Shown here piece by piece: positions 6,615-52,401 of a DNA stretch of 64,000 nucleotides (position 1 is the first letter of the stretch; each line of letters starts with the position of its first letter). Under the pieces are notes generated by a model that saw nothing but the letters and a program-made list of their open reading frames with translations, was not told the origin of the DNA and made no database searches. The position numbers and the translations under genes are program-made. The DNA comes from Alphaproteobacteria bacterium (GTDB lineage: Bacteria; Pseudomonadota; Alphaproteobacteria; UBA828). The DNA is taken from assembly GCA_965216915.1 (NCBI GenBank), contig CBDCGS010000011.1:1314569-1378568 (forward strand). Direction: 5' to 3'.

Positions 6615-6637
6615 AGATCGAGAAGGACGCGACCGAC

Positions 6638-9833: not shown

Positions 9834-9842
9834 GAGGGCGCG

Positions 9843-10754: not shown

Positions 10755-10832
10755 CCGCTACCCGCATTCGCACCGAATTGAGACCGCGCGGGCGTCCGAG
10801 CCGACGCCTCACCGCACGGGAGGGAGAACACG

Positions 10833-34639: not shown

Positions 34640-34685
34640 GAAACGGCGCGGCGCTTTGACATCGTGGCGACCCGATGGCGGCGCC

Positions 34686-35411
34686 TCAGACGATCAAACG
34701 CGATCCGGGATAGAACGCCGTCTGATAGGCGGGGCGGGCGCGGATCCGCGCATACCAGTCTGCGACGCGCGGCCGCCGAGCCCACCGATCGGCCATACCG
34801 AGATCCTCCATGCGTTGCAAAAGAGGGGCAATGCAGATGTCGGCGATCGAGTAGTGATCGTCGACCAGCCAGGCGCCTCGACCGAGCGCCTCCTCCATGC
34901 GGCCGAGCGACTGGTCGAGCTGCTCGATCGCCATGGCGCAATCCTCCGCGCTGAAGCCGGCGCGGCCCATGCGCTTGAGAAACGGCTTGCGCAAGGGGTT
35001 GGCGTCGGCGAAAGCGTCGAACTCCTCCTCGGTCATTTGCTGGAAACGCGGCAGCTGGATCTCCTGGAAGGTCGGGACCCGGATCGCCATGGAGGGTACC
35101 TCATCGATGAAGCGGAGCCAGACGCGCATTCGCGCGCGCATCAATGGATCTTCCGGCGAAAGACGCGGCTCGCCCGGATAGAGCTCGTCGAGGTACTCGC
35201 AGATCACCGTGGATTCGATGATTGGCTGCCCGTTGTGGACGAGTGTTGGCACGACCCCGTTTGGATTGAGTGCGAGATATGGCGGCCGCACGTGCTCGCC
35301 GCCGGGCAGATCGACATGGTGGCTGACCCAGTCCAGCTGTTTCTCCGCCAAGCAAATGCGGACCTTCTGGCTGCAGGTGGACTTGTGGAAATGATAGAGT
35401 TCGAGCGTCAT
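34686..35411 (-). CDS. Glutathione S-transferase-family protein
   Basis: N-terminal thioredoxin-like GST motif MTLELYHFHKSTCSQKVRICL plus a C-terminal helical domain. The upstream extension in the ORF track was trimmed. Confidence 0.8.
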   Translation of the reverse strand: MTLELYHFHKSTCSQKVRICLAEKQLDWVSHHVDLPGGEHVRPPYLALNPNGVVPTLVHNGQPIIESTVICEYLDELYPGEPRLSPEDPLMRARMRVWLRFIDEVPSMAIRVPTFQEIQLPRFQQMTEEEFDAFADANPLRKPFLKRMGRAGFSAEDCAMAIEQLDQSLGRMEEALGRGAWLVDDHYSIADICIAPLLQRMEDLGMADRWARRPRVADWYARIRARPAYQTAFYPGSRLIV

Positions 35412-35707
35412 CTCGCCTCCGTCTCGGCCCGTTTCACCAGAGCAAGCGCGCACGCCGCGTCTCGCCCAACCGTCGCGCGCACGACCCATGCGGGCGGACC
35501 CATCAGTTCGACATCCTAGGTTCGTGGACCCGCAGCCGCCGATCAAGTCCGACTGATGCCGGTCCGGCAGCGCCAGGCGCTCCGGGGCCAGTGCGGCCAG
35601 CGCGCTCTCGATGCGGATCGCTCTTCTTCAACAACCGTGGCCCGGTTGGAAAAATCGCCGACGCTGGGTGCCGCCGATGACGGCAAGCGAGATTCTGCCA
35701 CACGTGG

Positions 35708-38950: not shown

Positions 38951-39334
38951 TCGACCGGCGGCCCCTCTTTGTATTGTCCGCAAGCGCTCGAGACCCCGCC
39001 CGGTTTCTCCGGGCTGGCTCGACTAAGCCAACAACTGATCGAACGACCGAACGATGTCAATGCCACGTTGCCGGTGGCGCAGTTTGTCGGTGCGATCTGG
39101 CGGCGAGGCCGACATCGCTGCCGTGACCGTCACGATGACGACCGGAAAAATTAGCCGGTGAGGATGATGCCGCGATGGCGGTGCTGGTTCTCGCGAGCCC
39201 TGTGCGCACGCCATCACGAGCGAATTTTCAGAAGCCGTCGATTGGTCGAGCGCCGTTGATCCTGATCAATGTGCGCCGGCTCGGCCGGTCTACCGTGACC
39301 TATCCCGAGTCAGCGTTTTGACACGCAGGAGGTT

Positions 39335-42300
39335 GTGATGTCGGAGGGGAGTGTCGGTCGGACAAGAATCACGAGAAGGACGTTCCTGTCACAACTGGCC
39401 GCCGCTGGGGCGGGGGCCGCCCTCATCTCCAAGCAAGCTGGCGCGTCGACGCGTTTGCTCGAGCCCCTGGAAATCGCGAACCCGCTGTCGGGTTATCCCA
39501 ACCGAGATTGGGAAAAGGTCTACCGCGACCTTTATAACAGCGACTCTTCGTTCACCTTCCTCTGCGCGCCAAACGACACGCACAATTGCCTGATGCGCGG
39601 CTTCGTCAAGAACGGCGTTGTGACCCGCATCGCACCGACCTACGGTTTCCACAAAGCGACCGACCTCGATGGAAACCGGGCGAGCCAGCGCTGGGATCCG
39701 CGCTGCTGCCAAAAAGGCTTGGCGCTCGTGCGCCGGTTCTACGGTGACCGCCGGTGCAAGCGGCCGCTCGTGCGCCGCGGTTTCTTGGAATGGGTGGAGG
39801 CAGGCTTTCCGCGCGACGCCGAGACCGGTGCGGTCGATCCCAAATACACCCAACGTGGCAAGGACCCGCTGTTGCCGATCAGCTGGGACGAGGCCTTCGA
39901 ACTCAGCGCCAAAGCGCTCGTCAACATCACGCGCACCTACTCCGGCACGGAGGGCAGTGCGCGGCTCAGCGCGCAGGGCTACGACCCCGCGATGGTCGCA
40001 GCCACCGGCGACGCCGGGACTCAGGTGCTCAAGTTTCGCGGCGGGATGCCGCCGCTCGGCATGACGCGGGTGTTTGCCCAATACCGCATGGCCAACGGCA
40101 TGGCGCTGCTCGACGACAAATTGCGCGGCACCGGCCCCGAGAAGGCCATCGGCGCCCGCGGGTGGGACAATTATAGCTGGCACACCGATCTGCCGCCCGG
40201 ACATCCCATGGTGACCGGTCAGCAGACGGTCGACTTCGATCTTTGCAACGTCGAGCACGCCAATCTCGTGCTCGTTTGGGGCATGAACTGGATCACCACC
40301 AAGATGCCCGACGCGCACTGGATGACCGAGGCGCGTATGAAGGGCACCAAGATCGTGGTGATCGCGGCTGAGTACAGCGCGACCGCGAACAAAGGTGACG
40401 AGGTCATCATCGTGCGCCCCGGCACCACACCGGCTCTCGCGCTCGGCATCGCGCAGGTGATCATCGAAGAAGGCCTCTATGACGCCGACTACGTCAAAGC
40501 CAACACCGACCTGCCGATGCTCGTGCGCCTCGACACCGGCGAGCGCTTGCGGGCGGACGAGGTGTTCGACAGCCACCAGCTCGCCGCGCTGAAGAACAAC
40601 ACCGTGGTGCTGGCCAAAGGCGAGAAAGGCCCGCCCATCCACAAGCAGCCAGGTCCGGTCATGAGCGCAGCGCAGCGTGAGACCTGGGGCGACGCCGTGC
40701 TGTGGGACACCAACACCGGCGGCCCAGTCGCGATCAATCGCGATGCTGTGGGCAGCCATTTCGCGCCACTCGGCATCGATCCGGCGCTCGAGGGGACTTT
40801 CGAGGTCACGTTGGTCTCGGGCGAGCGCGTCGGGTGCCGCACCGTGTTTGACGTCACGCGCGAGGTCCTGGACGGAAGCTACCGGCCGGCGGATGTCGAA
40901 AAGCTGACCTGGGCTCCGGCAGACGCGGTTCGCGGCCTCGCCCGCCAGATCGCGAAGAGCATGGACAAGACCCTCTTCGTGATGGGAATGGGACCGAACC
41001 AGTTCTTCAACAACGACCTCAAGGATCGCGCGGTCTTCCTCGTCGCGGCGCTAACGCGCAATGTCGGGAAGATTGGCGGCAATGTCGGGAGTTATGCCGG
41101 CAACTACCGGGCGAGCTTCTTCAACGGATTGCCGCAATATATCGGCGAGGACCCCTTCGATATCGAGCTCGACCCCAGCAAGCCGGCGCGCCCGCGCATG
41201 CGCTGGAAACCCGAGAGCGTTCACTATTTCAACCATGGCGAGAAGATCCTCCGCGTCGGTAAGGCGATGCTCACCGGCAAGTCGCACATCCCGACACCGA
41301 CGAAGTCGATCATGGTGAGCAATTCAAACTCGCTCATCGGCAACGCGAAGGGCCACTACGACACGGTCGTCAATGTGCTGCCCAAGGTTGAGTTCATCGC
41401 CATTAGCGAGTGGTGGTGGACGGCGAGCTGCGAGTATTCCGACATCATCTTCCCGGTCGATAGCTGGGCCGAGTTCGCCTACCCGGACATGTCGATCAGC
41501 GTGACCAACCCGTTTCTCTACGTGTTTCCGACCACACCATTGTCACGCATGCACGACACCCGCTCCGACATGGAGGTGGCCGAAGGCGTCGCGCGGGCGA
41601 TCGGACGCATCACAGGCGATCCCCGGCATGAGGACTATTGGCGGTTCGTGCGCGAGGGGAATGCGCGGCCCTACATTCAGCGCATTCTCGATCATTCCAA
41701 TGCGACGCGGGGCTACAGGATCGAGGATTTGGAGCGCGAGGCGGAAGATGGTGTGCCGGCGATCCTGCAGACCCGAACCTATCCCAAGGTCGGTGCATGG
41801 GAGCAGGGGAATGAAAGCAAGCCCTGGTACACCAAGACCGGGCGGCTCGAATTCTATCGCGACGAGCCGGAATTCATGGACAGCGGCGAAAATATCGTCG
41901 TGCACCGCGAGCCCGTGGATTCCACCTTCTACGAGCCCAACGTCATTGTCGCCAAACCGCACCCTCTGATTCGCCCGAAAGCGCCGGCCGACTACGGCCT
42001 CGCCCAAGACGACGTCTCCGGCGAGGCGCGCCAGGCGCGTCACGTGCTGCGCTCGGTGGATGAGGTGCTGGCCTCCGAGCATCCGCTCACCAAGGATGGC
42101 TATCACTTCATCTTCCACACCCCGAAATACCGCCATGGCGCGCACACCATGGGTGTGGACACCGACATCGTGGCACTTTGGTTCGGCCCGTTCGGCACCA
42201 TGCACCGCAACGACAAGCGCATGCCTTTCATCACGGAGGCGTTCGTCGACATCAACCCGCTGGACGCGCAGGAGATGGGGATCGATGACGGCGACTACAT

Positions 42301-42823
42301 CTATGTCGATGCCGACCCCCACGACCGTCCGTTCTACGGCTGGCAAAGCAAGCCGGACGACTACAAGGTCGCGCGGCTGCTCATCCGGGCCCGCTACTAT
42401 CCGGGCACGCCGCGCGGCGTCACACGGGTTTGGCACAACATGTACGGCGCCACCTACAGCTCCGTGGCGGGGCAAGAGACGAACGGCACAGGCCTCGCCA
42501 AGTCTCCCGAGACGGGGTACCAGGCGCTGTTTCGTCGCGGCAGCCATCAAAGCTGCACCCGCGGCTGGCTCAAGCCGACCTGGATGACGGATACCCTGAC
42601 GGTCAAGGGGCTGCTCGGACAGAAGATCACCAAGGGCTTCGTGCCGGACGTTCATTGCCCGACCGGGGCGCCGCGCGAATCCTATGTCCGTATCACGCGA
42701 GCGGAAGCCGGGGGCATCGACGGCGTGGCGCCCTGGAAGCCGGCTCGGCTCGGACTCCGACCGACTTACGAAAACGAACTCCTGAAGAGCTTCATCGCCG
42801 GACGTTTCGTGAACCGCGTCTGA
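39335..42823 (+). CDS. Molybdopterin oxidoreductase catalytic alpha subunit, type-II DMSO-reductase family (NarG/EbdA/DdhA-like), Tat-exported, 1162 aa
   Basis: Twin-arginine motif [18 protein letters not shown]. An N-terminal FS0-like region ([11 protein letters not shown]...x38...RCCQKG) is followed by molybdopterin-binding domains. The start is GTG at 39335 or ATG at 39338, after CAGGAGG. Confidence 0.85.
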
Positions 42824-42870
42824 TCGGCGGCGGCCGGTCGGAAACCAGTCCCTTTGGACAGGAGGAAAGA

Positions 42871-43998
42871 ATGGCCAAGCGGCAGAATTGGCAGATCGGG
42901 CGAGACATCGACTACCCCTACGAGGGCCCGCCTCCGCAAAAGCAAGTCGCCTATATCTTCGACACGAACAAGTGCATCGCGTGCCAGACCTGTACGGTGG
43001 CCTGCAAGACCTGTTGGACCAGCGGCAAAGGCCAGGAGACGGTCTTTTGGAACAATGTCGAGAGCAAGCCATATGGCGGCTACCCGACGGGTTGGGACAT
43101 CAAGCTGCTGGATAAGCTCGGGCCGGCCGAATGGTCCGGCGATGTGCTCGCGAGCAGAACGCCGTTCGACGGCCTGGATGATTTCGAGCAGCCGCGGGGC
43201 TACCGGCCGGATGCCGACGACTATGGCCAGCCCAACCTGGGCGAGGACGAGATCACCGGCACGCTCGACAAAGGCGCTCATTTCGAGGGCGTGCATCCGA
43301 TGTGGATGTTCTATCTCGCCCGCATCTGCAACCATTGCAGCAATCCCGCCTGCCTCGCCGCTTGCCCGCGCAAGGCGATCTACAAGCGGGATGAAGACGG
43401 GATCGTGCTGGTCGACCAGGAGCGCTGCCGCGGTTACCAGGAGTGTGTGCGCGCTTGCCCTTACAAGAAGGTGTTCTACAACCTGGTCAGCCGGATCTCG
43501 GAGAAATGCATCGGGTGCTTCCCGCGCGTAGAGCAGGGCGAGGTCGCGCTCTGCGTCGAATCGTGCATCGGCAAGATTCGTTTTCACGGGTTCCTGTCCA
43601 CTCAGGAGGCGCCACGCGACGACAACCCGCTGGATTACATCGTCAAGATTCGCAAGCTCGCGTTGCCGCTCTATCCGCAGTTCGGCACGGCGCCGAACGT
43701 CTATTACATTCCACCACTCCACGTGCCGAACGGCTTCCTGGAGCAGGTCTTTGGGACCGGTGTTGAAGCCGCCAAGGAAGTCTATCGCAACCTCAAGGAC
43801 GACCCACAGCTGCTCGGCGCGCTTCTGCTTTTCGGCGCCAGCAACCGTATCATCATGCGCTACGAGGTGCGGGGCGAAGAGGTCGTGGGCTGGGATGTGG
43901 ATGGCACCGAGGTCGCACGCGTGCCGTTTACGGAGCCGACCTACATCCGCGAACACTACGACGCCAAGTTTGACGCCTACCGGCACAACACGACTTGA
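42871..43998 (+). CDS. Iron-sulfur beta subunit (NarH/EbdB-like, four-cluster ferredoxin) of the type-II molybdoenzyme
   Basis: RBS AGGAGGAAAG. Cys clusters CIACQTCTVACK..., CNHCSNPACLAACP..., CRGYQECVRACP, CIGCFPRVEQG...CVESC. Confidence 0.85.
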   Translation: MAKRQNWQIGRDIDYPYEGPPPQKQVAYIFDTNKCIACQTCTVACKTCWTSGKGQETVFWNNVESKPYGGYPTGWDIKLLDKLGPAEWSGDVLASRTPFDGLDDFEQPRGYRPDADDYGQPNLGEDEITGTLDKGAHFEGVHPMWMFYLARICNHCSNPACLAACPRKAIYKRDEDGIVLVDQERCRGYQECVRACPYKKVFYNLVSRISEKCIGCFPRVEQGEVALCVESCIGKIRFHGFLSTQEAPRDDNPLDYIVKIRKLALPLYPQFGTAPNVYYIPPLHVPNGFLEQVFGTGVEAAKEVYRNLKDDPQLLGALLLFGASNRIIMRYEVRGEEVVGWDVDGTEVARVPFTEPTYIREHYDAKFDAYRHNTT

Positions 43999-44012
43999 GC
44001 GGAGGAGCCAAC

Positions 44013-44951
44013 ATGAAACCGTTTGCTCGTTTGATCCTGGTGGCGGGCTGCCTGGCCGGCGCAGCGAACACATCGGGGCTCGCCGCTGGCGAACCCTCGG
44101 CGAGCTGGCCGGCCGCGGGCGTCGCGGCCTTGCCCGAGGTCGCGGTGGTTGCCGCCGAGGAGCTGGTCGTGGTCAAGATCGACCATGCGCTCCTGAGCGA
44201 GGACCCCTATTCGGTCGATTGGTGGGTGGCGCCGTATGTCGAGGTCGAGATTGACGCCCAGCAAATGGCGCGGCCTGCGCTCGACGAGGCATCGGTCGGC
44301 ACACTTCGCGTCCAGGGCCTCACAGACGGAACCTACATCGCATGGCGGGTCTCCTGGCGCGACACGACGCCCGATGGCAACGTCGACGTCAGCCGCTTCA
44401 CGGATGGCGTTGCGGTCGAATTTCCGTTGGATCCGGACGCGCTGCCGATGATGGGCGACGAAGAGTCGAAGGTGCAGATCCTCTACTGGAAGGCGTTGTG
44501 GCAGAAGGATATCGACGTCGGGTTTCAGGATGTCCAGGACGTGCATCCGAATTTCTGGACCGATCTCTACTGGTTCGCGGAGGGAGAATTCCCCTATCCG
44601 GTTCCGACGGCCTTTGAGAACCCGGTGGCGATGCAGTGGTTCGTCGCGCATCAAGCGGGCAACCCGATGGCGGCTTTCTCACGCCGTCAGCCCGTCCAAG
44701 AGCTCGTGGCGAAGGGGTGGAGCACGCTGACGATCCAGCCTTATTCGGTGACCACCTCACGCGGCACTTGGGTGCGCGACAGTTGGGCTGTCGTGTTCCG
44801 CCGCCCGATGATCACCGACGACCCGCTCGACTATCAGTTTGCCGCGGGCATGGCAGGGCAGATCGCCTTCGCGGTGTGGGACGGCGCGTCGAACAATGTC
44901 GGGGGCCGCAAGCACTGGTCGGACTGGGTGGATTTTCGAATCGAGGAGTGA
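44013..44951 (+). CDS. Heme-b gamma subunit (EbdC/DdhC/SerC-like 'ethylbenzene-dehydrogenase-related' domain) with Sec signal peptide
   Basis: RBS GGAGGAG before the ATG at 44013. Signal peptide MKPFARLILVAGCLAGAANTSGLAAG. Its position after the alpha and beta genes is typical of type-II enzymes. Confidence 0.7.
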   Translation: MKPFARLILVAGCLAGAANTSGLAAGEPSASWPAAGVAALPEVAVVAAEELVVVKIDHALLSEDPYSVDWWVAPYVEVEIDAQQMARPALDEASVGTLRVQGLTDGTYIAWRVSWRDTTPDGNVDVSRFTDGVAVEFPLDPDALPMMGDEESKVQILYWKALWQKDIDVGFQDVQDVHPNFWTDLYWFAEGEFPYPVPTAFENPVAMQWFVAHQAGNPMAAFSRRQPVQELVAKGWSTLTIQPYSVTTSRGTWVRDSWAVVFRRPMITDDPLDYQFAAGMAGQIAFAVWDGASNNVGGRKHWSDWVDFRIEE

Positions 44952-44954
44952 GCC

Positions 44955-45668
44955 ATGGCTTCGACGCCTCTCCAGCTGCTCGCGCAGGCCGACCTGTTGC
45001 TATTCGTTGCGGATGGCTTTCGCGAGCCCAACGATGCCTTGCGTGACGGTTTTTCCGAAACGGCCTCGGCGCTTCCGGCACTCATCGAACGCGCGGGGGC
45101 CGGCCGCGCCGTCGAAGCGTCGTTCGAGGAGGCTCGTGCCGCGCTCGATGCTCTCGACGTGGCGCGCTGGCGCGAGGAGTTCACTTATCTGTTCGAAGGC
45201 GGTGTCGAATGCCCCATCAACGAGGCGGGCTTCGTGCGGCGCGACAAAGGCGCGATCCTCGGCGATATCGCCGGTTTCTACCGTGCCTTCGGGTTCCGTC
45301 TCACTGATGACTGCAACGAGCGCGTCGACCATCTCGTCTGCGAACTGGAATTCACGGCCATGCTGCTCGTCTTGTGGGCGCAAGCCGAGACGGGTGGGGA
45401 GAGGGCGCACGCCGAGATCAGCCGCGACGCGCTCGACGCCTTCACCTACGCGCATTTGGGCGAATGGTTACCCGCTTTCTGCGAGCGGTTGGAGGAAGTG
45501 ACCGCTCTTCCGTACTATTGTCATCTTGCGCGCTTGCTGGCTGTCGCGTGGGCGCACGTTTGCCAGCAGAACGCGCTGGCGGTGCCGGCCGAGCCGAACC
45601 TGTCGGACCCCGGAGAGGACGAGGGCACGCCGTACGAATGCGGTCTCGCAGACGCCGGAATCGCCTGA
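44955..45668 (+). CDS. TorD/NarJ/DdhD-family redox-enzyme maturation chaperone (delta)
   Basis: 237-aa acidic helical protein. Its position and size match the delta chaperones of type-II molybdoenzyme operons. Confidence 0.65.
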   Translation: MASTPLQLLAQADLLLFVADGFREPNDALRDGFSETASALPALIERAGAGRAVEASFEEARAALDALDVARWREEFTYLFEGGVECPINEAGFVRRDKGAILGDIAGFYRAFGFRLTDDCNERVDHLVCELEFTAMLLVLWAQAETGGERAHAEISRDALDAFTYAHLGEWLPAFCERLEEVTALPYYCHLARLLAVAWAHVCQQNALAVPAEPNLSDPGEDEGTPYECGLADAGIA

Positions 45669-45803
45669 GGCGGCTTCACCGCCTGCGCAAGGCCCCGGCG
45701 TTCGCCCCACGAGGTCTCCGACGCGGCGCGCCTTGGCACACGCGATCCCAAACGGAGGGACAAACGCCGGGAAGCAGTCAGCGCGGGAGCTGGGGGGATA
45801 ACC

Positions 45804-46586
45804 ATGAGACTAGAAGACAAGACCGCACTCGTCACAGGGGCGACGGCTGGTATTGGGGAAGCTTGTGCGAAGCTATTTGCGGCGGAAGGCGCGCGCGTGT
45901 TGTTCACCGGGCGCGATGTGCCCCGGGGCAATGCTGTGCTCGAAGCGATTACAGACGCCGGAGGGACGGCCGAATTCGTAACGGCGGATCTGCGGGAGAG
46001 CGGCGCGTGCGACCGACTTGTCGAGGAAACCGTAGAGCGGCTGGGTCGCATAGACGTTCTCGTCAACAACGCTGGCATCCTCTATTCGGCCCCAGCCGCT
46101 GAAACGACGGACGAGCAATGGGAGGACACCTTTGCTGTCAACGTGACCGCCGTTTTCCAATTGGCACGTGCCGCGCTGAGAAAGATGATTGCGCAGGGTG
46201 GCGGTTCAATCGTCAACATTGCGTCCGAGTCGGGGTTAAACGGCGAGCCGGGCCTTACTGCTTATTGCGCCAGCAAAGGCGCGGTCATTCAAATGACCAA
46301 ATGCATGGCGCTGGATCATATCGGCGACAACGTGCGGATTAACTCGGTCTGCCCAGGTGAAACGATGACCAAAATGATCGACGACTGGCTTCAGTCTCTG
46401 CCGGGCAATATCGAGGACAATATCGACGCTCTAGCCAAGGTCCTCCCGATCAAACGTTTGGCGCGACCCGAGGAAGTCGCCAACGCCGCGCTTTTCCTCG
46501 CGTCCGATGAAGCAAGCTATTGTGTCGGCACAAATCTCTCAGTTGATGGCGGCACCGCCGCGACCGGCGGGCCCTATCCGGTATGA
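45804..46586 (+). CDS. SDR-family oxidoreductase (candidate secondary-alcohol dehydrogenase of the pathway)
   Basis: TALVTGATAGIGEA, NNAG, catalytic YCASKGAV. It immediately follows the molybdoenzyme operon, analogous to ped after ebdABCD. Confidence 0.85.
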   Translation: MRLEDKTALVTGATAGIGEACAKLFAAEGARVLFTGRDVPRGNAVLEAITDAGGTAEFVTADLRESGACDRLVEETVERLGRIDVLVNNAGILYSAPAAETTDEQWEDTFAVNVTAVFQLARAALRKMIAQGGGSIVNIASESGLNGEPGLTAYCASKGAVIQMTKCMALDHIGDNVRINSVCPGETMTKMIDDWLQSLPGNIEDNIDALAKVLPIKRLARPEEVANAALFLASDEASYCVGTNLSVDGGTAATGGPYPV

Positions 46587-46835
46587 CACACTAGCTCGCG
46601 CCGCCTCTTCGGCCTTCCACGTGGCGAAAGGGGTACGATCACGCTGGGGGACGCCGGCAACTCGCGCGGCGTTTGTAGGGCGATGAGGTGCAGCAGTTCG
46701 AGCCTGCCGTGTACCATTGTCGGTGGCGGGTCGAGATGAAATTTCATCCAACGGATCGTCCTGACGAAGTGTTCTTGTGCGGTTCGGGCAATCGTGCCCC
46801 ACCCTGGAGCACTCCGATTGGAGGCTGACACAGCG

Positions 46836-48860
46836 ATGTGGCGAGTAGGAATCGATGTCGGGGGCACGTTCACGGATCTGTACGCGCTCGACGAGCAGCG
46901 AAATAGGAGTGTCAGCTCGAAGGTACTAACCGTCCGGCATGACAGGGCCATCGGCGTGTTCAACGCGTTGAGGGCCGCAAGCATAGCGCCCGGGGAGGTC
47001 GAAACACTTGTGCACGGCAGCACAACGGCGACCAACGCGCTCGTGGAGCGGAACTATCCGCCGGCGGCCATGATCACGACAGAGGGTTTCAGAGACGTCA
47101 TCGAAATCGGGCGCCAGAGGCGCAAGGACCTCTTCGACCTGCACCAACAACGCCCAGAACCGCTTATTCGGCGCCGGTATCGTTTCACGGTGTCGGGTCG
47201 CATGGGTTCTGATGGCGGCGAGCTCGAGCCGTTGGATGATCGCGGTGCGGTTGTCCTCGCGAGGCAGTTGAAGGCGATGGGAATCACGTCAGTCGCGGTC
47301 TGCTTCATCAATGCCTACGCGAACCCGTCGCACGAGCGGCGTGTGCGGGACATCCTGAGAGATGAGCATCCGAACTGCTTCGTGGCGCTTTCCTCGGACA
47401 CGGTAAGCAAGTTTCGCGAGCACGGCCGCTTCACGACCACGACGATCCGCGCCGTGCTGTTGCCAGTCATGTCTGACTATTACGATCGCCTGCATTCGAG
47501 CCTCGTTGACAACGGCTTCACGGGAAATCTTCTCATATTGAAAAGCAATGGCGGCATGATGGGAGTGGATCTTGCGCGTGAACGCCCGGAAGAAACCGTC
47601 GAGTCAGGTCCCGCCGGCGGTGTCGGCTATGCACGCTTCCTAAGTGCGAAATCGGAATTCCCGCGGATCATATCGACCGATATGGGCGGCACGACGTTTG
47701 ATGCGTCCATTATCGAGGATGGCGAAGGATTGATAACGCACGACTACGAGCTCGATTGGGAAATGCCGATCATCATTCCGATGCTCGATATTCGCAGCGT
47801 TGGGGCCGGCGGTGGCTCGATTGCCTGGGTCGACGACGGTGGATCGCTGCGGGTCGGTCCACGGAGTGCTGGTTCGGAACCGGGGCCCGTGTGCTATGGC
47901 GGCGGTGGAACCGAGCCCACGGTGACAGATGCGAACTTGGTTCTCGGCCGCCTGGAACCCACTCTCGGCGGAAAATTCGAGCTAGACGAGGACGCAGCGC
48001 AAGCTGCGATCGCTGCGGTGGGTGAGCAGGTCCAATTGGGCCCGCTGGAAACGGCCCAAGCGATCATAGAGATCTGCTGCGAGAACATGGCGCAAGCGAT
48101 CAAACTGGTCCTCGTCGATCGTGGTCGCGACCCTCGCGATTATGCGATTGCAAGCTTTGGTGGGGCCGGGCCGATGCACGCTGCCTTCATTGCCCGGGCA
48201 ATGAACATACCGAAGGTCGTCGTGCCGGCCAACGCTGGTGTCGCCTCGGCGTTTGGTGCTATCACAATGGAATTGCGGCACGACTTGGAGGACTTTTACT
48301 ATGGGGACGTCGCAACCGCAGATCTCGATCGCCTAAGTACCTTGTATGACGCTTTGGAAGCGCGCGGTCGGGATCTGCTCGCAAGAGATGGTGTGGCCCC
48401 CGAAGATATGCGTCTCCAGAGAAATGCCCAGATGCGCTATGTCGGTCAATTCTGGGAAGTTCTTACGCCGATCCCCTCGGGGTCTTTGAACCGCGAGTCG
48501 GTCGCACGGATCTCGGAGGCCTTCCACCAGGCGCACGAAACCGAGCACGGGGTGTGCTCGCCCGAGTTCCAGGTGGAATTTGTGAGCATTGGTCTGACGG
48601 CCACGGGTCGATCCAGGGGACAGCAGCAGATCGTCGAGCAACGAACCGCCGCTGCGGCTCAAGCTAGCCGCCGGCAGGTCTATTTCGACGGTACCTGGTT
48701 TGACACCTCAGTGCTCGACGGAAACGCATTGGGTGCGGACGAGATCGTCAATGGGCCAGCGATCATTGAGTACCCACACTCAGTGACGGTTCTTCCCCCT
48801 CATTCCAGCGCGTCGGTTGACCGGCTGGCGAACCTCATCATCGAGGCTCGAAAGCCTTGA
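46836..48860 (+). CDS. Hydantoinase/oxoprolinase/acetone-carboxylase-family protein, HyuA-type (ATP-binding) subunit
   Basis: N-terminal MWRVGIDVGGTFTDL actin-like ATPase motif of the HyuA family; 674 aa. RBS GGAGG. The region has lower GC. Confidence 0.85.
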   Translation: MWRVGIDVGGTFTDLYALDEQRNRSVSSKVLTVRHDRAIGVFNALRAASIAPGEVETLVHGSTTATNALVERNYPPAAMITTEGFRDVIEIGRQRRKDLFDLHQQRPEPLIRRRYRFTVSGRMGSDGGELEPLDDRGAVVLARQLKAMGITSVAVCFINAYANPSHERRVRDILRDEHPNCFVALSSDTVSKFREHGRFTTTTIRAVLLPVMSDYYDRLHSSLVDNGFTGNLLILKSNGGMMGVDLARERPEETVESGPAGGVGYARFLSAKSEFPRIISTDMGGTTFDASIIEDGEGLITHDYELDWEMPIIIPMLDIRSVGAGGGSIAWVDDGGSLRVGPRSAGSEPGPVCYGGGGTEPTVTDANLVLGRLEPTLGGKFELDEDAAQAAIAAVGEQVQLGPLETAQAIIEICCENMAQAIKLVLVDRGRDPRDYAIASFGGAGPMHAAFIARAMNIPKVVVPANAGVASAFGAITMELRHDLEDFYYGDVATADLDRLSTLYDALEARGRDLLARDGVAPEDMRLQRNAQMRYVGQFWEVLTPIPSGSLNRESVARISEAFHQAHETEHGVCSPEFQVEFVSIGLTATGRSRGQQQIVEQRTAAAAQASRRQVYFDGTWFDTSVLDGNALGADEIVNGPAIIEYPHSVTVLPPHSSASVDRLANLIIEARKP

Positions 48861-48886
48861 TCCAAAGCAGGAGGAGCAACGCGGAT

Positions 48887-50671
48887 ATGACCGAGAGTGG
48901 CAATCCCAAAAGCGGAACCCGCGAACTGGATCCGGTCACATTCGAGGTGCTCCGCAATCAATTCGAATTTTGCTGCGACCGAATGTCCAAGGTGCTCTAC
49001 AAAACGGCGTTTTCGCCGATCCTTAGTGACATTCTCGATTTTTCGAACGCGGTCTACGATAGCGAGATTCGGTTGCTCGCTCAGTCGCCGGGCTGCCCAA
49101 TCCACATGGCGGCAATGCACTTCGCGGCGCGGGCATCGGTCGAGCGGTATGGGATCGAGAATCTCGCGGCGGGCGATGTCGTGATCCTGAACGATCCGTT
49201 CGCCGGTGGCACGCACATCCCCGATACAACGTTCATGATGCCGATCTACGCCGGCTCGGAGCTACTTGGGTTCGCGGTTAGTCGTGGCCATTGGCAGGAT
49301 CTCGGCGGTGGTGCTGCTGGTGGTCAATCATTTGGAACCCATATCGCGGGCGAGGGCCTGCGTATCCCGCCACTCAAGCTTTTCAATGAGTACGAGATCA
49401 ACAAGGATCTCGTATCACTCATTAAAAATAACACGCGGTGTCCGCAATATATCGAGGGAGATATTCAGGCGCACATGGCTGCCTTGAAGGTTGCCGAACA
49501 GGAATATCTTCGCGCGGTCGATCGGTATGGTTTGGACACGGTGAAAACGGCGATGCGGGAATTGATCGCCTATACAAACCGAATAACAAGGAGGCGCATC
49601 GCAAACGTCGCAGATGGCGAATACGAGGTTGAGGATTTCGTCGATACTGACGGGTTCAGCGATAAACCGATCAAACTCAAGGTCAAAGCGACCATCAACG
49701 ACGAGCATATCACGATCGATTTTACCGGTTCCGATCCGCAATGCATCGGCGCGATTAACTCGCCGTTGGCAAACACCTACTCGTCCGTGTACCTCGCGCT
49801 GAGATTTTTTCTGTGTCCAGACGCGCCGGCCAACGCCGGCCTCTTCGACGCCGTCGATATCATTCTACCCGACGACTGTTGGCTGAACGCCAAATGGCCG
49901 GCTCCAACAATCGGCTGTACGACGGTCACCGCAGCGAAAATCAATAGCGCAATTTGGTTCGCGATGGGGCAAGCCATGCCCGAGCATGCAATTGGCGGGA
50001 CGATGTCCGATTGCAATTGGCTCGTTTGCTCTGTCAAGACCCCAGGGTCGAGCGAACAGGCGGTGTTCTCGGACTTGCCGGCGGGTGGCTGGGGTGGAAT
50101 GCGCGACCACGACGGCGTTAGTGTTTACTACGATCCGACTGGAAATTGCATGAACCTCTCGGCAGAGGTCGCCGAGCTTTGCTATCCAGTCGTCTACGAA
50201 ATGTTCGAAATGCGGACGGATTCGGCTGGCGCAGGCCTCCATCGCGGCGGGATGGGCGCCAGCCTGCAGTTTCGTTTCAAAGGTTCGGCCGAGCTGAGTA
50301 TCGAAACATCGCGGACGATAGAAGGGAGTCCCGGTGTCGAAGGCGGTCTCGCCAGCCCTGTGCAAAAACTTTTCAAGGTAGATGGAGACGGGACGAGCGA
50401 GGTTATCGGTGGTTGGTGCGAGGATGGTTCGTGGAAAAACCCTCTTCTCGCGGCATACCGTTTCCAGGCCGGCGAAGCCTTTCGCATCGATACAACTGGC
50501 GGGGGCGGTTGGGGAGATCCGAAGCAGAGACCAAAAGAGCGCGTCAGGGAAGACGTGCTCGATGGATATGTTTCCATCGAAGCGGCGCGTGAAATCTACG
50601 GTGTCGAGTTAAACGAAAGTGGCATAACACCCGAACAGCCGCCACCGCCACCGGGAGCCGCGTCAGATTAG
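48887..50671 (+). CDS. Hydantoinase/oxoprolinase/acetone-carboxylase-family protein, HyuB-type subunit
   Basis: 594 aa with the HyuB-like pattern (DPVTFEVLRNQF...). RBS AGGAGGAG. The start overlaps or abuts the HyuA stop, which suggests coupling. Confidence 0.85.
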   Translation: MTESGNPKSGTRELDPVTFEVLRNQFEFCCDRMSKVLYKTAFSPILSDILDFSNAVYDSEIRLLAQSPGCPIHMAAMHFAARASVERYGIENLAAGDVVILNDPFAGGTHIPDTTFMMPIYAGSELLGFAVSRGHWQDLGGGAAGGQSFGTHIAGEGLRIPPLKLFNEYEINKDLVSLIKNNTRCPQYIEGDIQAHMAALKVAEQEYLRAVDRYGLDTVKTAMRELIAYTNRITRRRIANVADGEYEVEDFVDTDGFSDKPIKLKVKATINDEHITIDFTGSDPQCIGAINSPLANTYSSVYLALRFFLCPDAPANAGLFDAVDIILPDDCWLNAKWPAPTIGCTTVTAAKINSAIWFAMGQAMPEHAIGGTMSDCNWLVCSVKTPGSSEQAVFSDLPAGGWGGMRDHDGVSVYYDPTGNCMNLSAEVAELCYPVVYEMFEMRTDSAGAGLHRGGMGASLQFRFKGSAELSIETSRTIEGSPGVEGGLASPVQKLFKVDGDGTSEVIGGWCEDGSWKNPLLAAYRFQAGEAFRIDTTGGGGWGDPKQRPKERVREDVLDGYVSIEAAREIYGVELNESGITPEQPPPPPGAASD

Positions 50672-50714
50672 GAGACAACTGTCCGGCCCGCCAACGACAC
50701 CGAAAGGAGCTGAA

Positions 50715-51479
50715 GTGACAGGAAAACTAGAATCCAAAGTCGCGCTCGTGACCGGTGGTTCCCGCGGAATGGGTCGGTCGTACAGCGAGCGGTTCGGTGC
50801 CGAAGGCGCGGCAGTGGCGGTCATTTATCGGTCTGACTCTGACGCGGCGCACCAAGTCGTCGACGCTATACAAAAGACGGGTGGCCAGGCTGTCGCGATC
50901 CAATGTGACGTGTCGAACGTTGACGCCATCCACCGTATGGTCAGCGAGGTATGCAAGCACTTCGGCGGAGTCGACATTCTCGTCAACAACGCCGGCATTT
51001 ATCTTTTCACACCGGTTGAGACGACGACCGAGGAAATCTGGGATCAACAGATCAACACCAACCTCAAGAGCGCATTTTTCTGTGCCCAGGCCGTCGTCCC
51101 GGCAATGAAAAAGCGAGGCGGCGGCAAGATCATCAACATTTCCTCGATATTCGGACAGAGTGGATTTGCCGGATCGGCCGCCTACTGCGCGACAAAGGCC
51201 GGAATGTCTCTGTTGACCAAGACGCTTTGCCTAGAACTTCGCGAGGCGAATATTCAGGTCAATCAGATTTCGCCTGGCTGCATCAAGACCGATATGAACG
51301 AGGCATATCGAGCCGAGAATGACGATTACAATGCTGCGCTCCAGAACCACTTCGGTGTTGGTGATCCTTGGCTCGACCCCGACGAGCTGACCGGCGCTGC
51401 CGTTTTCCTCGCATCGTCTGATTTGAACTCTGTGACAGGTGCAAACATCAATGTCGACCGTGGTTATGCCGCGGGGTGA
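50715..51479 (+). CDS. SDR-family oxidoreductase
   Basis: VALVTGGSRGMGRS, NNAG, YCATKAG. GTG start after AGGAG. Confidence 0.8.
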   Translation: MTGKLESKVALVTGGSRGMGRSYSERFGAEGAAVAVIYRSDSDAAHQVVDAIQKTGGQAVAIQCDVSNVDAIHRMVSEVCKHFGGVDILVNNAGIYLFTPVETTTEEIWDQQINTNLKSAFFCAQAVVPAMKKRGGGKIINISSIFGQSGFAGSAAYCATKAGMSLLTKTLCLELREANIQVNQISPGCIKTDMNEAYRAENDDYNAALQNHFGVGDPWLDPDELTGAAVFLASSDLNSVTGANINVDRGYAAG

Positions 51480-51521: not shown

Positions 51522-51549
51522 CCTCAACCTGGCGCGGGCCAGGTTGAGG
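51522..51549 (+). terminator. Perfect 12-bp stem / 4-nt loop hairpin (cctcaacctggc-gcgg-gccaggttgagg) 42 nt after the SDR stop
   Basis: Read directly from the sequence. There is no U-tract, so it may be a rho-dependent or REP-like element rather than an intrinsic terminator. Confidence 0.35.
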
Positions 51550-51735
51550 CACATCGGCCGGCGCCGATCATCAACCCGGCGGGCCCCGCAACGACCCCGC
51601 GGAAGATGCGGTTCAATCCGAGCCCACTCCTCATCGCTCAGCCAACAAGGCGTCTTCACCATCCAAGCCTCCTACCGTTCCGAAGCTTGAATCAAAAAAA
51701 TCAACCGAGATGAGAATCCCTATTGAGTACCGACA

Positions 51736-52200
51736 CTAGTGCGAGCACGTCCGCGGTTGGACGAGGTCGCGCCTCTTGAAGCTCGCCGCCCCAAGGAGCG
51801 CATCGACGGCGTGCCCATCGGAGCTCAGCGGCAGCAGAATCGCGCGATAGAGCATTTCGCTCCCGTGATAGCTCAGGAAAACGTCACTGTTGGCGACGGG
51901 TTTTCCGACGTTCACCACAACCCGGCAGAAATCGATGATCTGATCCGCGTGCTCGTCGGGGAGCGTGTCGATCCGCCGTCCCGTCAGATCGAGTCTCAAG
52001 CCTTGCGCGAGCTCGGACCCGCAGCGGGTCACCGCATAGGCTTCCGGACCGCCGGAGGTGTCGATCACGAAGGAATTTTCCAGCAATGCCCCAGTGCACG
52101 CGGCTTCGACATCACGCAACCGAGGGTAGGGCCGATCGCCGCACAGCGTGTGCCACGCGGAAAATGCCTGCCCGATCAATCGCCTTTCAAGCCGACGCAT
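51736..52200 (-). CDS. Hypothetical protein (possible PAS-like fold), ~154 aa
   Basis: C-terminal 150 aa of a long GC-rich ORF (MRRLERRLIGQAFSAWHTLCGDRPYPRLRDVEAACTGALLENSFVIDTSGG...). The upstream part of the ORF-track frame is probably spurious, and the start is uncertain. Confidence 0.3.
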   Translation of the reverse strand: MRRLERRLIGQAFSAWHTLCGDRPYPRLRDVEAACTGALLENSFVIDTSGGPEAYAVTRCGSELAQGLRLDLTGRRIDTLPDEHADQIIDFCRVVVNVGKPVANSDVFLSYHGSEMLYRAILLPLSSDGHAVDALLGAASFKRRDLVQPRTCSH

Positions 52201-52401
52201 GGTTCCCTCAACAAACAAACGCCCGTGGCCTGTCTTGTCGGCACCGTCTGTTTGATGCGGCGACGACACCGGCGTGTCGCCCGACAACATTGGGGTCAGA
52301 GTTAGAAATGTTGGTAAACGAATCCTTAACGAGCTCACCCGCGAAAAGTGGAAACCCGTCAGGAAAGGGCCAAGTGGTACAGCGCCAATGCATAGGGTGA
52401 T

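Follow-up and report, generated by a model that had tools for sequence, protein, structure and literature searches.

The eight co-oriented genes on the + strand at 39338-51479 of the window (the whole 64 kb stretch of DNA analysed here) are best read as three evolutionarily independent units lying head to tail on one strand: an NXR/NAR-type molybdoenzyme cassette, a short-chain dehydrogenase (SDR1) and a HyuAB-SDR2 hydrolase module. We give this reading a probability of about 80%. The gene calls confirmed the coordinates and the HyuA and HyuB lengths given in a first-pass annotation, but the single ethylbenzene-like pathway (Ebd-Ped-Apc) that it drew from them is contradicted by the NXR-type scores of the Mo enzyme, a hydrolase-like HyuAB, the lack of shared loci, a composition break and the occurrence of SDR1 elsewhere. 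The Mo operon and the island downstream of it are a juxtaposition of independent modules and not an ethylbenzene-like pathway.

Organization of the locus

36506-38983, - strand: DMGDH-family flavoprotein with DAO, FAO_M and GCV_T domains, divergent from the Mo operon
39256-39269, + strand: FNR/CRP-family box TTGATCCTGATCAA, 69 bp 5' of the alpha ATG
39338-42823, + strand: alpha, NxrA/NarG-like catalytic molybdopterin subunit, type II DMSO-reductase family, 1161 aa, TAT signal
42871-43998, + strand: beta, NxrB-like 4-cluster Fe-S subunit, 375 aa, Fer4_11 domain
44013-44951, + strand: gamma, NxrC-like soluble haem-b subunit, Pfam EB_dh, Sec signal peptide
44955-45668, + strand: delta, NarJ/TorD-type assembly chaperone, Nitrate_red_del domain, type II chaperone subfamily
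45804-46586, + strand: SDR1, classical short-chain dehydrogenase, adh_short domain, first gene of the low-GC3 stretch
46836-48860, + strand: HyuA-type ATP-binding subunit, 674 aa
48887-50671, + strand: HyuB-type metal-dependent hydrolytic subunit, 594 aa, Hydantoinase_B (507 bits)
50715-51479, + strand: SDR2, conserved dehydrogenase partner of the HyuAB clade, from identity to HyuAB-adjacent SDRs
51522-51549, + strand: perfect 12-bp hairpin CCTCAACCTGGC-GCGG-GCCAGGTTGAGG, 3' of SDR2, from folding

The alpha reading frame opens with GTG at 39335, and the ATG at 39338 is preceded by an AGGAGG ribosome-binding site, as is the beta ATG at 42871. The TAT motif of alpha is RITRRTFL and the N-terminus of gamma carries the Sec signal peptide MKPFARLILVAGCLAGAA. 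Neither terminator scanning nor folding picked out a recognisable intrinsic terminator between delta and SDR1 (135 bp) or between SDR1 and HyuA (249 bp), and because the genes are co-oriented, read-through co-transcription is possible; the transcription units of 39256-51479 are predicted ones. The hairpin beyond SDR2 is a possible terminator without a T-run that was not called by the consensus terminator scan.

The molybdoenzyme cassette

For alpha, beta and gamma alike, the solved complex that matches best is the nitrite oxidoreductase NXR-ABC of Kuenenia stuttgartiensis (PDB 7B04; Chicano et al. 2021, PMC8387239). Alpha matches its NxrA (7b04_B) with 913 bits over residues 10-1158, compared with 178 bits to PcrA and 138 bits to EbdA; beta scores 342 bits to NxrB and 223 bits to EbdB, and gamma 80 bits to NxrC and 52 bits to EbdC. 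Residues C76, N79, D80, C84, C124 and D284 of alpha align with C67, N70, D71, C75, C115 and D275 of the Kuenenia subunit and are all invariant in 118 homologues, among which the window alpha deviates at 8 of 453 columns conserved in at least 95%. Asn79 corresponds to the substrate-coordinating Asn of NXR/NAR, the Mo-Asp is kept, and gamma retains the residues that align with the haem ligands Met155 and Lys305. Because the Kuenenia NXR is the best match for all three subunits and the catalytic and cofactor ligands are retained, the enzyme is assigned to the NXR/periplasmic-NAR type of complex.

Both complexes follow the same TAT/Sec export logic and have the FS0 motif Cys-x3-Asp-x3-Cys...Cys, the substrate Asn, the Mo-Asp and a haem b ligated by Met/Lys. 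The alpha match, though full-length, reaches only ~42% identity, and the window is without the NXR-T tubule subunit and the large anammox-type accessory cluster; its host resembles a heterotrophic alphaproteobacterium and there is a predicted FNR box upstream. Four-gene cassettes of this kind are also known from the periplasmic NAR/NXR 'sister clade' and from poorly annotated NXR-like enzymes of non-nitrifiers, examples being the Nitrotoga NXR, the Hydrogenobacter pNAR, Planctomycetota MAGs and the Beggiatoaceae 'NxrA/NarG' (PMC6050957, PMC10732223, PMC6052272). Judged by the lineages of its homologues, the window cassette is alike: those with 59-86% identity are found in just such lineages, their hosts being Alphaproteobacteria, Thioploca, Thiomargarita, Parabeggiatoa, Planctomycetota, Myxococcota and others. 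EbdABCD (PDB 2IVF) is also a periplasmic type II DMSO-reductase-family enzyme with the order A-B-C-D and a gamma subunit of EB_dh fold with Met/Lys-ligated haem b. The Ebd-like C-H hydroxylase proposed in the first-pass annotation is nevertheless contradicted by the disparity between 913 and 138 bits, by Asn79 at a position occupied by Ile in EbdA and by an FS0 cluster that is Asp-ligated rather than His-ligated; alpha also misses equivalog models more than tenfold (147 bits against a cut-off of 2000 for EbdA).

Across 84 related loci the alpha-beta-gamma(-delta) cassette stands alone with unrelated neighbours. HyuA or HyuB is present at none of the 84, of which 54 extend 5 kb or more downstream of alpha, and delta is the fourth gene in 57 of the 65 loci with enough downstream DNA to judge. 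From these comparisons the four-gene cassette is judged to be autonomous. The box ahead of it is the sole perfect match to TTGAT-N4-ATCAA across the 64 kb window (0.04 expected from shuffles). Of 76 related loci, 11, most of them proteobacterial, have an FNR-type box with at most one mismatch 5' of the alpha gene, and a Crp/FNR-family regulator gene adjoins the closest homologous cassette; these observations favour anaerobic control of the cassette.

Composition of the downstream island

In the window, 23 Pfam-supported background genes have a GC3 of 0.812 ± 0.029 with a minimum of 0.770. The Mo operon is host-like (0.77-0.83; z = -1.5 to +0.5), while SDR1 (0.659; z = -5.2), HyuA (0.690), HyuB (0.644) and SDR2 (0.647) fall at z = -4.1 to -5.7, and the synonymous-codon log-likelihood of these four under background usage is below that of every background gene. 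The break between the chaperone gene and SDR1 thus divides the Mo operon from the genes that follow it, and host-like values (0.77-0.84) return at 52-64 kb. The lower GC noticed earlier at 45.7-51.7 kb is therefore statistically distinct in a GC and codon profile (GC3 0.64-0.69 against 0.81 ± 0.03), and it covers SDR1-HyuAB-SDR2 but not the Mo operon. The distinct stretch is consistent with the horizontal acquisition suggested at that time, and units 2 and 3 (SDR1 and HyuAB-SDR2), both atypically low in GC3, were probably acquired horizontally. Insertion scars, a tRNA gene and mobile-element genes were not found at the island boundaries.

SDR1 and the HyuAB-SDR2 module

Unit 2 (45804-46586) would be a stand-alone short-chain dehydrogenase. 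Orthologues of SDR1 with 84-88% identity sit in unrelated gene contexts, adjoining an OYE-like oxidoreductase at one locus (L171) and lying among SDRs and a TRAP transporter at another (L172), which argues against the role of pathway alcohol dehydrogenase once given to it. SDR1 and SDR2 are 35% identical.

The full length of HyuA is covered by Hydant_A_N, Hydantoinase_A and Hydant_A_C domains and contains the ATP motifs DVGGTFTD, DMGGT and GSEPGP (as defined in PMC8453981), and D51, H110, D113 and H135 of HyuB take the aligned positions of D41, H99, D102 and H124, the metal ligands of CapB. Among solved structures HyuA scores 429 bits to an 'N-methylhydantoinase' (the depositor's name) and 356 to caprolactamase, compared with 285 to Apc and 187 to Acx, and HyuB scores 242 bits to CapB compared with 91 to Apc delta and 64 to Acx alpha, so that for both subunits the hydrolase scores are 2-4 times as high as the carboxylase scores. 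The carboxylases depend on further subunits, namely Acx gamma and, in Apc, alpha', gamma and epsilon (PMC8453981), and the locus has neither a gene for a third or extra carboxylase subunit nor free space for one. HyuAB is accordingly placed by sequence in the hydrolase branch (hydantoinase/oxoprolinase/caprolactamase) and not in the carboxylase branch, and the Apc-like ketone carboxylase of the first-pass annotation is contradicted by the lower scores and the absent third-subunit gene. The highest NCBIfam matches, CapA (472 bits) and CapB (301 bits), are well under the equivalog cut-offs of 1000, and HyuAB is for that reason not a caprolactamase orthologue.

CapAB of Pseudomonas jessenii (PDB 6YRA; PMC8453981) and the ATP-dependent lactamases/5-oxoprolinases share the two-subunit architecture of HyuAB, and CapAB shares all of the A-subunit ATP motifs and the Asp-His-Asp-His metal site of the B subunit. 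The window differs in having the order A then B and in its SDR and DMGDH-type partners, in place of the aminotransferase of the caprolactam route. Apc (PDB 5L9W) and Acx (PDB 5SVB/5M45) are remotely homologous to both subunits and have the ATP-binding fold and metal site in common with them, but carboxylase B-type subunits are 684-776 aa long, against 594 aa for HyuB. In summaries of the N-methylpyrrolidone pathway (Alicycliphilus BQ1 and Paracoccus; PMC6987047, PMC12866759), NmpAB is a HyuA/HyuB-type pair that opens the five-membered ring of an N-methylated cyclic amide or imide (N-methylpyrrolidone or N-methylsuccinimide), after which an amine oxidase/demethylase and a succinate-semialdehyde dehydrogenase act. 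Relatives of the window HyuAB with 55-58% identity similarly cluster with GabT, GabD, DMGDH or an FAD oxidase, whereas the window module has two SDRs instead of GabD, GabT and amine-oxidase genes.

At 76 loci related to HyuAB, an NXR-like operon is never a neighbour. DMGDH-family (N-demethylase) genes are neighbours at 24 of them and an XRE-cupin/PuuR-like regulator at 29; a Liv-type ABC transporter, GabT and GabD also occur. The annotated cluster of a cultured Phaeobacter includes ETF, FolD, PurU, GabT and DMGDH-like genes, and one from Paracoccus includes an FAD oxidase and GabD and is nmp-like in composition. The fallback of the first-pass annotation, an N-methylhydantoinase-type enzyme tied to DMGDH/sarcosine metabolism, fits the DMGDH neighbours and the Phaeobacter cluster. 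In the window itself, the DMGDH-family gene at 36506-38983 is a possible, unproven partner of HyuAB. An SDR2-type gene accompanies HyuAB in seven close relatives; SDR2 is 78% identical to the SDR following HyuAB at L168 and 57-66% identical to those at L006/7, L088, L137, L169 and L170. Some Mo enzyme adjoins HyuAB-SDR2 in three of seven independent close relatives (XDH/CODH-family at L168 and L170, a cytoplasmic bis-MGD enzyme at L137), which makes the NXR-like adjacency less obviously accidental. A Mo-oxidoreductase partner may be a recurrent need of the HyuAB-SDR2 pathway, and this counts against the reading of independent units.

Alternative explanations

In the Ebd-Ped-Apc route a periplasmic hydroxylase feeds cytoplasmic enzymes. 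A single catabolic operon of eight genes built in this manner (Ebd-like hydroxylation, alcohol oxidation by SDR1, ketone carboxylation by HyuAB, then SDR2) would match that topology, the gene order and common strand, the EB_dh fold of gamma, the undetected terminators between units and the other Mo enzymes beside HyuAB-SDR2. Against it stand the alpha scores, Asn79 and the FS0 ligand, the ordinary place of alpha in a clade without HyuAB co-occurrence, the hydrolase-like scores of HyuA and HyuB with neither gene nor space for extra carboxylase subunits, the differing composition of the Mo operon and the location of SDR1 orthologues elsewhere. The model largely fails these sequence-level comparisons already and we consider it highly improbable. 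An assembly chimera of two organisms is less probable still: the source is a metagenomic or uncultured-genome contig and GC3 drops sharply at 45.7 kb, but the host-like composition beyond the island means that two chimeric joins would be needed, and two sources record identical HyuA and SDR1 proteins on one contig of 1,786,248 bp.

It is unlikely, though less so than either of these, that HyuAB is the N-methylhydantoin amidohydrolase of a creatinine route, with the DMGDH at 36506-38983 as its sarcosine-dehydrogenase partner and the NXR-like cassette and SDR1 inserted between them. The name of the best solved chain for HyuA points this way, as do the closest relatives (L005 and L168), where a divergent DMGDH-family gene directly adjoins HyuA in the layout of the window minus the cassette and SDR1. 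Additionally, L170 has an amidohydrolase of the isochorismatase type, a fold shared with N-carbamoylsarcosine amidase, and the window is rich in methylated-amine genes. However, the window DMGDH is only 44-52% identical to all HyuAB-linked DMGDHs and its GC3 is host-like (0.845), unlike that of HyuAB, and neither insertion scars nor intergenic similarity to L005 were found. The classical creatinine route has no role for an SDR, no N-carbamoylsarcosine amidase or creatinine deaminase gene lies beside the module in the window, and caprolactamase scores about as high as the 'N-methylhydantoinase' chain.

Proposed functions

Under the preferred reading of three independent units, unit 3 (46836-51479) would encode a two-subunit ATP-dependent cyclic-amide hydrolase and a dehydrogenase. 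HyuA would phosphorylate a cyclic amide or imide in its enol/iminol form and the HyuB metal site would hydrolyse the ring. A small cyclic amide with an N-methylated five-membered ring, of the N-methylhydantoin, N-methyl-lactam or N-methyl-imide type, is the probable substrate, and a DMGDH-family enzyme would then remove the N-methyl group from the ring-opened product. SDR2 is most likely an imide/lactam-producing or -consuming dehydrogenase, which would oxidise a ring hydroxyl to make the substrate or reduce the imide/lactam to use it up.

Unit 1 (39256-45668) would be a self-contained cassette for a respiratory nitrate/nitrite oxidoreductase of the periplasmic NXR/NAR type, with a putative FNR box ahead of it. 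Alpha, with Mo-bisMGD and the Asp/3Cys FS0 cluster, would leave the cytoplasm by TAT and carry beta with it; gamma, with its Met/Lys-ligated haem b, would use Sec, and delta would act as a cytoplasmic NarJ-type chaperone. Nitrate and nitrite would be interconverted at the Mo centre, with five Fe-S clusters relaying electrons to or from the haem. The direction of the NXR/NAR reaction is not readable from sequence, as the literature notes (PMC6050957, PMC10732223, PMC6052272). Nitrite oxidation is a lesser prospect, perhaps one chance in several, and the enzyme more likely than not serves mainly as an anaerobically induced nitrate reductase in a heterotrophic, methylamine-using alphaproteobacterium.

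Organization and composition of the locus

Eight genes on one shared strand occupy positions 39335–51479 of the window. The first-pass annotation had read them as a single pathway resembling anaerobic ethylbenzene catabolism (Ebd-Ped-Apc), and its coordinates, lengths and family calls were reproduced by the re-derived genes and their domain matches.

Genes at 39335–51479 and their immediate neighbors
36506–38983, − strand: DMGDH-family flavoprotein, upstream of the Mo operon and divergent from it
39338–42823, + strand: molybdopterin alpha subunit, 1161 aa, with an AGGAGG ribosome-binding site and the TAT motif RITRRTFL
42871–43998, + strand: Fe-S beta subunit, 375 aa
44013–44951, + strand: EB_dh-fold gamma subunit with a Sec-type signal peptide
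44955–45668, + strand: NarJ-type chaperone (delta)
45804–46586, + strand: SDR1
46836–48860, + strand: HyuA, 674 aa
48887–50671, + strand: HyuB, 594 aa
50715–51479, + strand: SDR2
51736–52812, − strand: PAS_5-domain ORF, downstream of SDR2 and convergent with it

Consensus scans for intrinsic terminators and promoters returned none in the gaps between these units, among them the 135 bp between delta and SDR1 and the 249 bp between SDR1 and HyuA, and overall counts did not exceed shuffle expectation. The predicted RNA folds of the spacers were no more stable than shuffled sequence (z = −0.07 to −1.6).

Composition divides the eight genes in two. Against a background of 23 window genes with Pfam support (GC3 = 0.812 ± 0.029, minimum 0.770), the four Mo-operon genes are indistinguishable from the host (GC3 of 0.828, 0.814, 0.808 and 0.769), while SDR1 (0.659), HyuA (0.690), HyuB (0.644) and SDR2 (0.647) fall far below it (z = −4.1 to −5.7) and each fits the background synonymous codon usage more poorly than every background gene. 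The low-GC stretch at 45.7–51.7 kb is thus statistically distinct, as had been proposed from its appearance, and its horizontal acquisition is supported in general terms by that composition. The stretch starts past the chaperone gene, which sets the Mo operon apart from the very genes that had been coupled to it; host-like composition returns past ~52 kb. No mobile-element genes were found at the edges of the island, the only direct or inverted repeats flanking it reflect SDR1/SDR2 paralogue similarity and chance matches, and the window contains neither tRNA genes nor Rfam families.

The right edge of the island is marked by a perfect 12-bp hairpin without a T-run (51522–51549, 43 bp past the SDR2 stop) and by an A-rich run, TCAAAAAAATCAA (51690–51700), in the spacer ahead of the convergent ORF. 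That PAS_5 ORF (51736–52812, −) overlaps a PG_binding_1/TPR ORF (52402–54186, +) by ~410 bp on the opposite strand and has an atypical codon-position GC, with GC1 close to GC3 at ~0.70; probably at least one of the two starts, or one of the ORFs, is wrong. On the other side of the locus, a + strand ORF at 34656–35519 was rejected as a gene, having no Pfam match and a shadow-like codon-position GC; the real gene there is a − strand glutathione S-transferase (34686–35546). A methylated-amine neighborhood lies further upstream at 264–13190, with a run of domains of the N-methylglutamate-pathway type.

Methylated-amine neighborhood of the window
264–2720, − strand: second DMGDH-family gene
3754–5097: DAO flavoprotein (N-methylglutamate-pathway-type run)
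5145–6614: type III GS-like (same run)
6548–7594: GATase (same run)
7582–8433: GXGXG (same run)
7962–9833: GltB-like (same run)
10833–13190: N,N-dimethylformamidase-beta-like protein

A periplasmic NXR/NAR-type molybdoenzyme

The subunits of the Mo enzyme were scored against all solved structures and, separately, against NCBIfam equivalogs. The alpha subunit matched, from end to end, the NXR alpha subunit of Kuenenia stuttgartiensis (KsNxrA; 7b04_B) at 913 bits (E = 1.6e-273; residues 10–1158 against 2–1144, ~42% identity over 859 aligned residues), with perchlorate reductase (178 bits), NarG (~135–139 bits) and EbdA (138 bits) far behind among solved relatives. The beta subunit scored 342 bits to Kuenenia NxrB versus 223 to EbdB, and the gamma subunit 80 bits to NxrC versus 52 to EbdC. 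All four EbdA–D equivalogs were missed (146.9, 233, 67.5 and 43.2 bits against cut-offs of 2000, 740, 400 and 360), by factors of ~3 (EbdB) to 14 (EbdA).

The residues that distinguish the two enzyme types point the same way. In KsNxrA the FS0 cluster is ligated by C67, D71, C75 and C115, N70 coordinates the substrate and D275 is a ligand of Mo, whereas EbdA has an Ile at the substrate position and a His-ligated FS0 (Chicano et al., PMC8387239). The window alpha carries C76, N79, D80, C84, C124 and D284 at the positions aligned with C67, N70, D71, C75, C115 and D275, and so has the Cys-x3-Asp-x3-Cys...Cys FS0 motif, the substrate Asn and the Mo-ligating Asp; where EbdA has Ile and His, the window alpha has Asn79 and Asp80. 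These six positions are invariant across 119 sequences (the window alpha and 118 homologues). Of the 453 columns conserved to 95% or more among the 118 homologues, the window alpha departs from eight, in most cases through a conservative substitution, and the alignment gives no sign of an altered active site. The gamma subunit keeps both axial haem-b ligands of NxrC, Met155 and Lys305 (PMC8387239). Besides the TAT motif of alpha, the gamma N-terminus, MKPFARLILVAGCLAGAA, reads as a Sec-type signal, and the beta subunit, as read from the DNA, has a polar start, MAKRQNWQIGRDIDYPYEGPPPQKQ, without a twin-arginine motif. Judged by these alignments and scores, the Mo enzyme is a periplasmic enzyme of the NXR/NAR type and not of the EBDH type.

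An autonomous cassette under probable anaerobic control

More than 100 proteins are 68–86% identical to alpha over the full length, originating from Alphaproteobacteria, Planctomycetota, large sulfur bacteria, Myxococcota and others. Scanning GTDB representatives, with a single genome for each species, yielded 80 loci at 59–86% identity. The cassette survey covered 84 loci on 82 distinct contigs, and for 54 of these loci 5 kb or more of DNA is available past alpha. Of the 65 loci with enough DNA to judge, 57 have alpha followed by beta, gamma and delta, and HyuA or HyuB homologues occur in none of the 84. The single locus with an SDR match (L060) has a weak one, far upstream of alpha. In the three closest contexts the four genes are followed by unrelated genes for TPR and radical-SAM proteins, GatCAB, or ArgG. 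As a cassette, the Mo operon is autonomous and has been widely transferred. A plasmid search with alpha gave no evidence of a plasmid-borne bacterial cassette, the sole close match being a haloarchaeal plasmid at 48% identity.

The closest cassette (L001/L008, CAYVIG010000029.1; alpha 86% identical) lies on a 17-kb contig with a GC of 0.54, binned as 'uncultured Dehalococcoidia', on which a Crp-family regulator and an FNR-like box are also present; this is either a recent transfer or a mis-binned contig.

Members of this clade have been described as poorly annotated 'molybdopterin oxidoreductases' in Planctomycetota MAGs, scoring >1000 bits to KsNxrA and of undetermined direction (PMC10732223), while those of the Beggiatoaceae were treated as 'NxrA/NarG' and assumed to be dissimilatory nitrate reductases (PMC6052272). 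A related periplasmic NAR/NXR sister clade includes both the Nitrotoga NXR and the characterised nitrate reductase of Hydrogenobacter (PMC6050957).

The 64 kb window has a single perfect FNR-type palindrome, TTGAT-N4-ATCAA (TTGATCCTGATCAA; 0.04 expected from shuffles), which is located at 39256–39269, 69 bp ahead of the ATG of alpha. Of 76 related loci, 11 (~9 distinct) have a box with no more than one mismatch in the 400 bp preceding alpha, compared with a rough expectation of ~1 under equal base frequencies, and the loci that bear such boxes include the 86% and 80% relatives, Thioploca, Thiomargarita and Parabeggiatoa. Variant boxes are also seen upstream of the cassette, as TTGAC-N4-GTCAA in proteobacterial relatives and as ATGAT-N4-ATCAT in deltaproteobacterial MAGs. 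From the unique box, the boxes in relatives and the Crp/FNR-family regulator gene that adjoins the closest cassette, we infer that the cassette would be induced anaerobically. As to physiological direction, nitrate reduction is tentatively favored over nitrite oxidation, with a probability of roughly 0.6.

HyuAB as a cyclic-amide hydrolase

HyuA matches Hydant_A_N (169 bits), Hydantoinase_A (299 bits) and Hydant_A_C (54 bits) and contains DVGGTFTD, DMGGT and GSEPGP, which correspond to the A-subunit ATP motifs defined as DxGGTxTD, DxGGT and GxxPGP in the caprolactamase (CapAB) literature (PMC8453981). HyuB covers positions 1–519 of the 519-position Hydantoinase_B profile (507 bits), and its D51, H110, D113 and H135 align with the CapB metal ligands D41, H99, D102 and H124. 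As the ATP motifs and the metal site are common to hydrolases and carboxylases, discrimination rests on similarity and subunit content. Among solved chains, HyuA scores highest to one named 'N-methylhydantoinase' by its depositor (429 bits), followed by caprolactamase (356), acetophenone carboxylase (285) and acetone carboxylase (187); for HyuB the corresponding values are 240, 242, 91 and 64 bits. The best NCBIfam matches, CapA (472 bits) and CapB (301 bits), are far under their cut-offs of 1000, short of caprolactamase orthology, and ApcC (286 bits) and ApcD (101 bits) compare with cut-offs of 1500.

The acetone and acetophenone carboxylases (Acx/Apc) require one or more additional subunits (PMC8453981), small and encoded together with the A and B subunits, which the window HyuAB pair lacks: HyuA and HyuB are spaced by 26 bp and HyuB and SDR2 by 43 bp, unoccupied DNA is limited to the 249 bp ahead of HyuA, and there is neither a gene nor space for such subunits beside the pair. 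On similarity scores and subunit content, HyuAB is a two-subunit ATP-dependent hydrolase of cyclic amides rather than a carboxylase. A housekeeping 5-oxoprolinase role was rejected as the main reading, since HyuAB has the composition of an island and catabolic genes as its partners.

Neighborhoods of HyuAB in related genomes

Across 76 loci with a HyuA or HyuB more than 50% identical, a DMGDH-family gene is present in 24 and an SDR2-type gene in seven, and neighbor clustering recovered an XRE-cupin regulator (29 loci), Liv-type ABC transporters and GabD-like and GabT-like genes. An NXR-like operon occurs in none of the 76, with no matches to beta, gamma or delta and two short generic molybdopterin matches.

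The closest module (L168; HyuA 77%, HyuB 84% and SDR2 78% identical) has a divergent DMGDH-family gene, then HyuA, HyuB, a PuuR-like XRE-cupin regulator and SDR2, after which come a three-subunit Mo hydroxylase of the XDH/CODH family, an omega-aminotransferase and an alanine dehydrogenase. Among the other close relatives, L006/7, L088 and L169 have the order SDR2-HyuA-HyuB. In L170 an XDH-family enzyme with CoxG lies upstream, and a GS-like ligase, an isochorismatase-type amidohydrolase and a DMGDH-family gene downstream, while in L137 a cytoplasmic bis-MGD oxidoreductase (791 aa, no NCBIfam equivalog) directly follows HyuB and precedes two SDR2-like genes. The L168 and L170 enzymes, both of three subunits, are 31% identical in their large subunits.

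Mo enzymes near HyuAB-SDR2 in relatives
L168, 10395–14252: XDH/CODH-family Mo hydroxylase
L170, 4706–9175: XDH-family enzyme
L137, 13896–16271: bis-MGD oxidoreductase

Some Mo oxidoreductase thus adjoins HyuAB-SDR2 in three of seven independent close relatives, which suggests a recurrent logic of Mo oxidoreductase, SDR and ATP-dependent ring hydrolase for N-heterocycle catabolism. To look for an insertion of the cassette between an ancestral DMGDH gene and HyuA, the window was aligned with L005, L006, L088, L137 and L091; nucleotide similarity to L005 began exactly at the HyuA ATG, and there was none in the spacers.

Cultured organisms have similar neighborhoods. On plasmid pP24_b of Phaeobacter inhibens P24 (L173, 56002–75705), a HyuAB cluster (HyuB 58% identical to that of the window) includes ETF, FolD, PurU, GabT, a cupin regulator, an ABC transporter and an 815-aa FAD oxidoreductase of DMGDH size. 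In Paracoccus pantotrophus, HyuAB is found with an FAD oxidase, a cupin, PucR and GabD, a composition resembling that of nmpABCDEF, the N-methylpyrrolidone cluster, as far as the latter is summarised in PMC6987047 and PMC12866759. The HyuAB clade may open N-methylated five-membered cyclic amides or imides, the ring-opened products of which would be demethylated by DMGDH-type enzymes, with SDR2 putatively interconverting hydroxy-lactam and imide. Taken together, HyuAB, SDR2 and DMGDH, at times with an XDH-type enzyme, may constitute a widespread, uncharacterised pathway for N-methylated cyclic imides or lactams, a reading to which we give somewhat less than even odds.

In five loci with HyuA ~56% identical (L109, L110, L135, L156 and L157), GabT-like and GabD-like genes are found close to HyuAB, recurrent members of these loci being a Liv-type ABC transporter and an XRE-cupin regulator, and all except L135 have a DMGDH-family gene within the fetched stretch; the arrangement fits a route from N-methyl-lactam through N-methyl-GABA and GABA to succinate. 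The pP24_b plasmid, from a cultured roseobacter, is mobilizable, and immediately ahead of its HyuA gene an IS256 transposase has inserted.

SDR1 is only 35% identical to SDR2. Its orthologues (84–88% identity) have an OYE-like oxidoreductase as neighbor in L171 and several SDRs with a TRAP transporter in L172, with no Hyu or Mo genes near them in either locus. The DMGDH-family gene at 36506–38983 has host-like GC3 and is 44–52% identical to every HyuAB-linked copy, equidistant from their three groups; since the window holds a second DMGDH-family gene and the N-methylglutamate-type run, an adjacent DMGDH paralogue is not surprising. A functional link between this gene and HyuAB is possible.

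Discussion

A single Ebd-Ped-Apc-like pathway across the eight genes is favored by their order and common strand, by the lack of a detectable terminator in the two larger gaps and by the Mo oxidoreductases found beside HyuAB-SDR2 in relatives. It is not supported once the parts are considered individually: the Mo enzyme keeps an unchanged NXR/NAR signature, the affinity of HyuAB is with hydrolases, SDR1 has a separate history, and the compositional break falls exactly between the Mo operon and the genes downstream. The contexts are likewise separate, as the NXR-like cassette stands alone throughout its survey and is missing from all 76 HyuAB loci. The fallback suggestion, an N-methylhydantoinase linked to sarcosine/DMGDH-type metabolism, fared better, in that the neighborhoods support in general terms a hydantoinase-type enzyme tied to such metabolism.

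The Mo oxidoreductases beside three of the seven HyuAB-SDR2 relatives are the reason to keep a small probability for one further alternative, in which the NXR-like periplasmic complex was recruited into an N-heterocycle or N-methyl-lactam pathway, where it would hydroxylate or oxidise independently of oxygen and feed SDR1/SDR2 and HyuAB. If true, a nitrite-oxidoreductase-like enzyme would have acquired a function on an organic substrate; we consider this very improbable. The preferred reading is that each module belongs to a known kind and that their juxtaposition is ordinary. As originally flagged, the locus would have been significant for an anaerobic pathway of the hydrocarbon type in a host where none was expected; with that reading unsupported, the locus is largely ordinary.

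Two aspects extend beyond this genome. The cassette is a further case of a widely transferred, biochemically uncharacterised NXR-like enzyme outside the nitrifiers, here in a genome resembling that of a methylamine-degrading alphaproteobacterium and with a perfect FNR box in front. The box and the methylamine-degrading host argue that at least some members of the NXR-like clade respire nitrate anaerobically and do not oxidise nitrite, which bears on the practice of counting metagenomic 'nxr' genes as nitrification potential. The HyuAB clade, for its part, has DMGDH-type demethylases, an SDR and PuuR-like regulators as consistent neighbors, joined in some loci by XDH-type hydroxylases, and these partners point to a putative catabolic route for N-methylated cyclic amides. 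With Phaeobacter inhibens (pP24_b) and Paracoccus pantotrophus as cultured carriers of the clade, the pP24_b cluster offers a tractable system for finding the substrate.
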